Origin: a virus
IMG/VR virus record: IMGVR_UViG_3300017783_000001
DNA: 64,000 bases
Direction: 5' to 3' (one strand)
Shown here: in pieces, positions 40,526 through 57,045 of the stretch
Layout: every line of letters starts with the position of its first letter
Numbering within the stretch: position 1 is the stretch's first letter
Notes under the pieces: model-generated
The model's input: only the letters and a program-made list of their open reading frames with translations
The model's database searches: none
What the model was told of the DNA's origin: nothing
Made by a program: the position numbers and the translations under genes

Positions 40526-40580
40526 AGGTGCGTTCCTTCAGGCGATTGCCTTACTTCCGACCATTGTTGGTTGAACGAAT
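40526..40580 (-). ncRNA. Glutamine riboswitch (glnA motif, class I)
   Basis: CGTTCA-[ACCA ACAA TGGT]-CGGAAGTA-[AGGC AATC GCCT]-GAAGGAACG: P1 CGTTC/GAACG, P2, E-loop AGTA/GAA and P3, lying between a promoter and the SD. Confidence 0.82.
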
Positions 40581-55711: not shown

Positions 55712-55920
55712 TATACAGGTAGTTCGCTTGTTTTAGGTAACAGATTTAACTTCTGACACTCTAAAGCAACCTTCTCTTTTAATGCTTTGTTAATTAATGG
55801 ACCGACCGTAGCTGTGTCAATCTCTCTTTCTTCGCAATAAAGAACGATAGCATCCATATAAGATGTTTTCTTCTCTTTTTTGAAGGCTTCTATTTCTAAA
55901 CTAAATTGTTTACTATTCAT
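55711..55920 (-). CDS. gp33: Late transcription co-activator (T4 gp33)
   Basis: FS.EIE......SYMDAI..YCE...ID......LI.K.LKEK...E...LN.L. Confidence 0.85.
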   Translation of the reverse strand: MNSKQFSLEIEAFKKEKKTSYMDAIVLYCEEREIDTATVGPLINKALKEKVALECQKLNLLPKTSELPV

Positions 55921-55926
55921 ATTCTC

Positions 55927-55955
55927 ACTATACTATAACTAAAGGGGTTTGTCAA
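55927..55955 (-). promoter_or_regulatory. sigma70-type promoter
   Basis: TTGACA-17-TATAGT. Confidence 0.75.
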
Positions 55956-56224
55956 GCACCAATACCAGGTTTAATTTCATATTCTTCCATAAAATCTTTT
56001 GCGTCTTCTTCAGGCATTTCAGCACAACCTATGTTGATTACCTGTGAAGTATCACCTTCTTCTCTTAATTTGTACATAAGACCACCATATAAACCATTAT
56101 GATTTTGATTAACAAAACTCATACATTCTGGTAGACTATCAAACTTATAAGCAGCGTGATGTCTAGGAAAAGTTTCTCCTTCTGCGTTCAGCAGAATTGC
56201 TACAATTAAAAATACCGTTTTCAT
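55952..56224 (-). CDS. Exported hypothetical protein
   Basis: Hydrophobic N-terminus, F.S..EC...C motif, SD AAGGAG. Confidence 0.6.
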   Translation of the reverse strand: MKTVFLIVAILLNAEGETFPRHHAAYKFDSLPECMSFVNQNHNGLYGGLMYKLREEGDTSQVINIGCAEMPEEDAKDFMEEYEIKPGIGA

Positions 56225-56243
56225 TTATCTCTCCTTTGAAAAC

Positions 56244-56536
56244 GAGAAGTTTCTGTTGCCAAGTACCTCTCAAACTCCGTTACCTATTAACTAGGCAGCA
56301 AGGGCAAAATTTGCTTCGCCATTTAAAATTGCGTTTGAGTTCGCCAACTATTAATCTCCAATGGGTCATCTGCGTCTGTCAATCCTAACACACCCCCCAT
56401 AAAAACACTAGCGATACTTACGCCACAGATATAACCAATACTTTAACATAGCAGTTCTCCTTCTACTAGTGTGTTTATGGTGGAGGTGTCGGGAGTTGCA
56501 CCCGAGTCCAGTCCGGTTCTTACACCACCATCAACA
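56244..56536 (-). ncRNA. ssrA: Circularly permuted two-piece tmRNA (alphaproteobacterial type)
   Basis: Acceptor piece ends ...TCGGG TGCAACT CCCGA CACCTCC A CCA (56478). After an ~80-nt intervening hairpin, the coding piece starts GGGGGTG (56397), giving a 7-bp acceptor stem with G3.U70. A pseudoknot precedes tag (A)GEANFALAA* at 56320-56291, followed by a 3' GGCAACAGAA hairpin. Outer ends are approximate. Confidence 0.9.
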
Positions 56537-56537
56537 A

Positions 56538-56732
56538 TTAATCCTTTTTAATCTTATCGCAAGTATTCTCGTCAGCATAAAGACCAGTCTCTTTGTCGTA
56601 TAACCAAACATATGAGTATGCAATGCTATTGCCTTTCTCTATACATTTCTTACCGAAAGAAACTCTTGGTTCCTTTATACTACAAGCACTTATTAAACTT
56701 GCAATAAAAATAATACTAATCAGTTTGTACAT
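56538..56732 (-). CDS. Small lipoprotein
   Basis: Lipobox-like ISAC after a hydrophobic stretch. Confidence 0.6.
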   Translation of the reverse strand: MYKLISIIFIASLISACSIKEPRVSFGKKCIEKGNSIAYSYVWLYDKETGLYADENTCDKIKKD

Positions 56733-57045
56733 TTACTTCCTTATAATTAAATATTCCGTACACTATGCACTTTTCTCCTTGTGCTGGTGTCTCAATAATG
56801 GCCATTAACTGACCATCTTCGTTTATCCAATGAGATATAGCATAAACTATATCACCATCTTTAGTGCCACCATTTCTTCCAAACCCAACACTATGTGGTT
56901 TCATTTTATTTGCGTCTAAAAACTCATTCATTTGAACGGCAGTAGTACACAACATAGGTGCTTGGCTGTTATAGAATATATTGTTATCGGCACTTACATA
57001 ATTACTTGTCATCAAAAACATAATAACGAGTAATAATTTTTTCAT
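56716..57045 (-). CDS. Exported hypothetical protein
   Basis: Start MKKLLLV with SD AAGGA; signal peptide; P.LC...C motif. Confidence 0.6.
   Translation of the reverse strand: MKKLLLVIMFLMTSNYVSADNNIFYNSQAPMLCTTAVQMNEFLDANKMKPHSVGFGRNGGTKDGDIVYAISHWINEDGQLMAIIETPAQGEKCIVYGIFNYKEVNVQTD

Follow-up and report, generated by a model that had tools for sequence, protein, structure and literature searches.

A 13-codon open reading frame within the intervening segment of a phage tmRNA gene is probably the decaying 5' stump of a gene for a conserved microprotein, a member of a family here called YEDLC. Alignment with related phage contigs demonstrates the homology of the frame to intact family members, the deletion that shortened it, the resulting loss of the family motif, and the existence of a relative that shares the deletion junction and has decayed further. 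The frame was found in a stretch of 64,000 nucleotides (hereafter the window) of the IMG/VR virus record IMGVR_UViG_3300017783_000001.

Results

The window belongs to a 99.5-kb record with a completeness estimate of 69%. Among named phages, the closest to it is the T4-like pelagimyophage Mosig EXVC030M of Pelagibacter. On the minus strand, positions 56242-56585 hold the whole precursor of a permuted two-piece alpha-type tmRNA gene, aligning to positions 1-355 of the RF01849 model. Although ARAGORN reported no tmRNA in the window, Rfam detected this one at full length with both RF04321 tmRNA_permuted (73.8 bits; gathering score 47) and RF01849 alpha_tmRNA (70.2 bits; gathering score 50), and its nearest named match is the annotated SsrA of Mosig (MT647606; 80% identity). 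As expected of the alpha type, the acceptor piece (56478-56542, from the RF04321 alignment and the sequence), comprising the 3' half of the tRNA-like domain with the T-arm and ending in CCA at 56480-56478, lies upstream of the 5' acceptor strand and the tag. The coding piece through the end of the tag frame occupies 56291-56398 (sequence and Rfam); the tag frame ends in the hydrophobic, alanine-rich tail ...ANFALAA followed by a stop at 56293-56291, and Mosig has an equivalent frame. The neighborhood also matches Mosig, with a PD-(D/E)XK nuclease gene upstream and genes for a gp33-like late co-activator and thyX downstream. At 56538-56732 on the minus strand there is a frame of 64 aa in which a hydrophobic stretch followed by Cys resembles a lipoprotein signal; the end of this frame at 56538 overlaps the first bases of the acceptor piece (56542-56538). 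Because no sigma-70-like promoter was found between this frame and the tmRNA, the tmRNA may be co-transcribed with the upstream genes.

Between the CCA and the G run starting at 56398 lies an intervening segment of 79 nt (56399-56477, minus strand; sequence and Rfam) which, by analogy with Caulobacter, would be lost when the precursor is cut into two pieces. It is closed by a stem whose 5' arm (56466-56478) includes the last A of the CCA and whose 3' arm (56399-56411, also supported by relatives) contains the stop codon; 56478-56466 and 56411-56399 form standard pairs at 12 of 13 positions with a single C.U mismatch, and ViennaRNA places the stem in both the minimum free energy and the centroid structures. 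The loop holds a Shine-Dalgarno (SD) site, AGAAGGAG, at 56457-56464 (minus strand), unpaired in the centroid fold and located 7 nt before the ATG of a frame of 13 codons plus stop (56408-56449, minus strand; ATG 56449-56447, TAG 56410-56408). A reading made earlier from the sequence alone had described this arrangement, a stem-closed spacer with a strong SD, a 7-nt gap, an ATG, 13 codons and a stop inside the stem, and that description is exact. Codons 1-11 correspond to the N-terminus of a YEDLC-family gene, and codons 12-13 are junction sequence.

The nature of the frame is apparent from a Tara Oceans contig, L332, which is collinear with the window and 92–94% identical to it over ∼8.8 kb. 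Stem and SD are the same in the L332 spacer, which at 145 nt exceeds that of the window by 66 bases and contains a frame of 35 codons (L332:7822-7926, minus strand). The first 11 residues of the two frames are identical, and in these 11 common codons there are two nucleotide differences, both synonymous. In the alignment (A5), the window allele equals the L332/L340 allele minus 66 nt, an in-frame loss of 22 codons that include the conserved C-terminal motif, with the junction at 56411-56416 on the minus strand. The window allele retains the SD and ATG, the first 11 codons of the gene, two codons of junction sequence, and a stop at its original position, but neither the linker nor any part of the C-terminal motif. 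Neither the window nor the rest of the 99.5-kb record contains a second copy of the gene or a match to the motif. Intact homologues occupy the same place in L340, L010, L011, L182, L108, L103, and L338, with the SD kept in L332, L340, and L010, and in the more distant relatives (L010, L011, L182, L108, L103, and L338, together with L231 and L302) these intact spacer homologues have 32 to 52 codons. Relatives thus bear out the earlier claim that coding information with its own SD lies inside a supposedly discarded spacer, for the SD, start and N-terminus are kept among them; the conserved entity is a longer gene, of 32 to 47 codons, to which the SD, the start and the first 11 codons are homologous.

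Decay has gone further in L005, whose nuclease gene adjoining the tmRNA (PD-(D/E)XK) is 93% identical to that of the window. Beside its 3' arm L005 carries the junction-specific GTATCG, which is common to the window and L005 only and absent from all full-length alleles, and it has lost both the SD and the frame. Still other relatives have bare hairpins as spacers (23 nt in L009 and 43 nt in Mosig). The simplest reading of these alleles is a decay series from a 35-codon gene through a 13-codon stump to a spacer with no frame. The long form is, to judge from the family as a whole, ancestral, because free-standing family members (see below) all have it; for the same reason, an origin of the full-length alleles from the short one by insertion is unlikely.

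The 79-nt window spacer is identical in four other contigs (L003, L004, L197, and L337), so that the window-type allele is known from five contigs of different samples with zero sequence variation. An argument for selection from zero changes in 79 nt among ∼95% identical contigs was dropped: their divergence is mosaic, with 10–20% divergence confined to swapped neighbor genes, and because divergence in the conserved blocks flanking the tmRNA is only ∼1–2%, the lack of change in the spacer carries no weight. In the window itself, the small flanking genes at 55900-56200 and 56500-57000 differ by 10–20% from those of L003 and L337, which are elsewhere ∼98–99% identical to it. As far as contig comparison can tell, small accessory genes on either side of a conserved tmRNA gene have been replaced in mosaic fashion. 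A second, independent truncation of a YEDLC-family gene within a tmRNA spacer was observed in L188 (5460-5578, minus strand); it belongs to a PGYLGRD subtype, is 48% identical over 31 aa to a free-standing member in L224, has lost the motif, and now passes through the stem into the mature tmRNA. The N-terminus is retained in both the window and the L188 truncations.

A profile built from five spacer-encoded proteins retrieved 266 clusters at E≤0.01 from a 5.8-billion-protein metagenome collection, nearly all of them of 30 to 47 aa and none with a Pfam domain or an informative name. Members begin with an amphipathic helix, which a variable linker connects to a nearly invariant C-terminal motif, H-R-x-H-T-x-x-Y-E-D-L-C; a single residue separates this motif from the stop. 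The motif's H, R, Y, D, L, and C do not vary among 101 aligned members. The N-terminus is only loosely conserved, with a looser hydrophobic pattern (M-[ILF]-x-[WY]-[ILF]..L-[WF]). The window frame fits this N-terminal pattern, 11 of 11 residues being those of L332, and lacks the C-terminal motif by which the family is recognized. Apparently 'longer' homologues proved to be gene-calling artefacts: the predicted gene either continued past a TAG stop into its neighbor or incorporated a frame lying upstream. Neither Pfam nor PHROGs has a model for the family, and a feature search of the ESM Atlas gave no usable match. Since a tblastn search of 50,697 deposited phage genomes, with two YEDLC proteins as queries, gave nothing meaningful, the family is, on the evidence of that search, so far known from metagenomes only.

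At least 12 distinct YEDLC alleles reside in tmRNA spacers, but most members are free-standing. A back-translated DNA pattern covering the last nine motif residues gave at least 127 matches in IMG/VR (among the matches listed, 120 free-standing genes and 7 in tmRNA spacers) and outperformed a locus search from the family alignment, which confirmed only 9 loci, tblastn being weak on 46 aa. Among the matches listed, the free-standing genes lie in tightly packed operons (for example, L201-L204). The invariant His and Arg, which lie outside the search pattern, are encoded by 2 and 5 synonymous codons, respectively. The pN/pS ratio was 0.38 for six codons outside the search pattern and 0.15 for the last 16 codons, the latter value being biased because nine of these codons are fixed by the pattern. 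We regard these sequence comparisons as evidence of purifying selection on the family. Free-standing YEDLC genes often adjoin genes for a ∼130-aa two-helix membrane protein (phrog_2524), lysozyme-domain proteins, or large virion proteins (for example, L223 9010-9647; L250 3848-8350; P0123, P0139, and P0141); there are hints of a role in the envelope or the late phase.

AlphaFold2 modeling of the L332 protein yielded a confident N-terminal helix at residues 2–14 (pLDDT ∼81) and a YEDLC motif without regular structure (pLDDT ∼58), in a model that is as a whole of low confidence (mean pLDDT 64.7). Such a prediction would fit a short linear motif that becomes ordered on binding.

Related loci were gathered through the neighboring PD-(D/E)XK nuclease gene, the conserved acceptor end and stem, and the stem-plus-SD pattern in metagenome contigs. 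The resulting 128 loci contain 88 distinct intervening segments ranging from 8 to 267 nt in otherwise conserved tmRNAs. Rfam matched a full-length permuted tmRNA above the gathering scores in each of the 14 relatives tested, of which 8 have an intact YEDLC member. Sixty-eight distinct segments preserve the closing stem, in which positions 1–8 are conserved and positions 9–11 covary (three to six standard pair types). At the short end of the range, 32 of 76 distinct spacers, among them those of the close relatives L005, L009, and Mosig, are shorter than 60 nt and contain no frame, and translation is therefore not required for maturation of the tmRNA. At the long end, a frame covering at least 60% of the spacer is present on the sense strand in 27 of 31 distinct spacers of at least 100 nt (on the antisense strand, 6).

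Besides YEDLC, these frames, of 29 to 78 codons, fall into at least eight unrelated spacer-gene families. Among them are a 29-aa basic peptide, a 43–47-aa Trp-rich protein, a 37-aa transmembrane peptide, a 68-aa DUF2061-like membrane protein (L123:5967-6170, minus strand; 22.3 bits, just under the cut-off), a 63-aa DUF6356 protein (L085:8744-8932, plus strand; 43.3 bits versus a cut-off of 24.4), and proteins of 75–78 aa. At the level of profile similarity, this shows that catalogued protein families occupy the tmRNA spacer slot, and comparison of the loci indicates that phage spacers hold many different genes under purifying selection. In most spacer genes, an SD and then the start codon follow closely on the 5' arm, and the stop codon falls within the 3' arm or next to it. 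Because unrelated genes (for example, those of L011 and L123) have the same 17-nt stem-plus-SD junction, the alignments suggest that spacer genes are replaced within a retained frame of stem and SD. In some loci (L161:364-504, plus strand; L165; L119; and L188:5421-5558, minus strand) no stop precedes the closing stem, and the frames continue into the 5'-terminal part of the mature coding piece; once cut by RNase P, they would be non-stop messages. Non-stop messages are the natural substrate of tmRNA.

Discussion

We consider it likely that the window frame is what remains of a YEDLC microprotein gene in the course of decay. In this pelagimyophage-like, T4-type lineage, the spacer loop would carry a microprotein gene with its own SD, bounded by the stem and with its stop in the stem, and the tmRNA precursor or the excised hairpin would serve as messenger for the intact gene. 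The in-frame deletion has taken 22 codons from the gene of the window phage, the entire motif among them. The stump may still be translated because its SD and ATG are intact, but its product would presumably be devoid of the family's function, and the spacer may be heading towards the plain hairpin seen in other relatives.

Several features count against decay, and they are the ones that favor the reading that the 13-residue peptide is made and functional, as an amphipathic helix, cationic and rich in Trp and Tyr, whose target would be a membrane or the usual partner of the family's N-terminal helix. The SD is strong, well spaced and unpaired; the deletion is in frame and spared the ATG and the stop position; the allele persists in four contigs besides the window, from different samples; and the part retained is the helix predicted with confidence for the full-length protein, which could act alone and is likewise spared in the independent L188 truncation. 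With 4 basic, 2 Trp, and 3 Tyr among its 13 residues, the peptide also fits by composition the Trp-rich, cationic, membrane-active 13-mers of the indolicidin/tritrpticin type, a resemblance which we take to be a lead only. However, the selected part of the family is the C-terminal motif that the stump has lost, the N-terminus being loosely conserved; five copies without variation provide no measure of selection; L005 has the same junction after loss of the SD and frame; and 13 residues are too few to span a membrane. We therefore consider a functional 13-mer unlikely. The micropeptide proposed by the sequence-only reading is indeed cationic and aromatic, and also amphipathic, these being properties of the family's N-terminal helix, but it looks like a gene remnant rather than a dedicated 13-mer.

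A broader variant is that the spacer is a working mini-messenger, or exchangeable slot, on a highly transcribed stable-RNA gene, with the stump yielding an active helical peptide or its translation modulating maturation; we judge this, too, to be rather improbable.

Less probable still is that translation of the short frame acts as a control device, in which a ribosome at the stop would open the closing stem and tune RNase P or 3'-end processing of the two tmRNA pieces. The geometry would suit such a device, with an SD just behind the 5' arm, a stop codon within the 3' arm at a distance of 9 nt from the RNase P site, and the same arrangement in other spacer genes, but it is equally what one would expect of a gene confined to the loop of a hairpin. 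A leader or attenuator should present a short frame at the same position whatever its sequence, and what occupies the slot is instead a series of unrelated genes with no conserved leader (two with Pfam matches, one above and one just below the cut-off), while the frameless short spacers, including those of close relatives, indicate that processing needs no translation. Translation-coupled control of tmRNA processing, the other function suggested from the sequence alone, is thus unsupported. Finally, a chance open frame in an AT-rich spacer, compatible with the shortness of the frame and an unremarkable whole-spacer fold energy (z = −0.5), can be ruled out for practical purposes, because longer, intact genes of relatives are homologous to the frame from its SD and start through codon 11, and an SD-led ATG frame of at least 13 codons arose in only 0.3% of 20,000 loop shuffles.

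Circularly permuted two-piece tmRNA genes in Alphaproteobacteria were reported by Keiler, Shapiro and Williams in 2000 (as cited in PMC9004378), and two-piece tmRNAs have been published for pelagimyophages and the OM43 phage Melnitz (PMC9004378). The permuted tmRNAs of alphaproteobacteria and marine T4-like phages have the same order as that of the window (acceptor piece, CCA, intervening segment, and coding piece with tag). In the papers searched, however, their spacer is described as discarded RNA, whereas in the window and many relatives the loop holds SD-led protein genes or remnants of them. A 2025 tmRNA database paper records a tRNA gene and a repeat element, and no protein gene, in intervening sequences (PMC11915505), and full-text literature searches turned up no description of a protein gene at such a site.

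In layout, the closest published parallel is the intervening sequence of Coxiella burnetii 23S rRNA, likewise an excised, stem-closed spacer of a stable RNA with an open reading frame, in this case for S23p; according to PMC4990558, S23p is apparently not made in vivo and the intervening sequence is regarded as a selfish element. It differs from the tmRNA spacer in the host RNA (rRNA helix 45) and in processing, and YEDLC-family proteins matched no Pfam family, S23p included, so the likeness is one of layout only. The group I intron form of tmRNA, which bears homing-endonuclease genes (PMC11915505), resembles the phage loci in that a protein gene is nested in a part absent from the mature RNA. 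In contrast, the phage spacer has no intron or splicing and would, by analogy, undergo ordinary tRNA-type end processing, and the cargo at the phage loci examined consists of microproteins, not nucleases. Within the YEDLC family, the window copy shares the SD context, start, and first 11 residues with the L332 member and differs from it in lacking the linker and motif.

Intervening sequences of tmRNA have been treated as throw-away RNA, yet marine T4-like phages appear to put SD-led protein genes there, and to swap and lose them. The window would contain one such gene halfway through decay, with both its intact progenitor allele and a later descendant devoid of the frame recoverable from metagenomes. 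YEDLC itself is a large, strongly conserved and uncharacterized family of phage microproteins that gene callers and family databases have largely missed. Annotators who meet a short frame in a tmRNA spacer should compare it with relatives before calling it a peptide or dismissing it. These loci also constitute a natural test of whether a stable-RNA precursor or an excised spacer can double as a messenger.

A glutamine riboswitch aptamer was also observed in the window at 40527-40579 (minus strand), 16 kb from the tmRNA. In L092 (1019-1072) and L126 (1303-1351) this aptamer directly follows the tmRNA, as published for phage Melnitz, and the linkage between tmRNA and riboswitch is therefore variable within this phage group.
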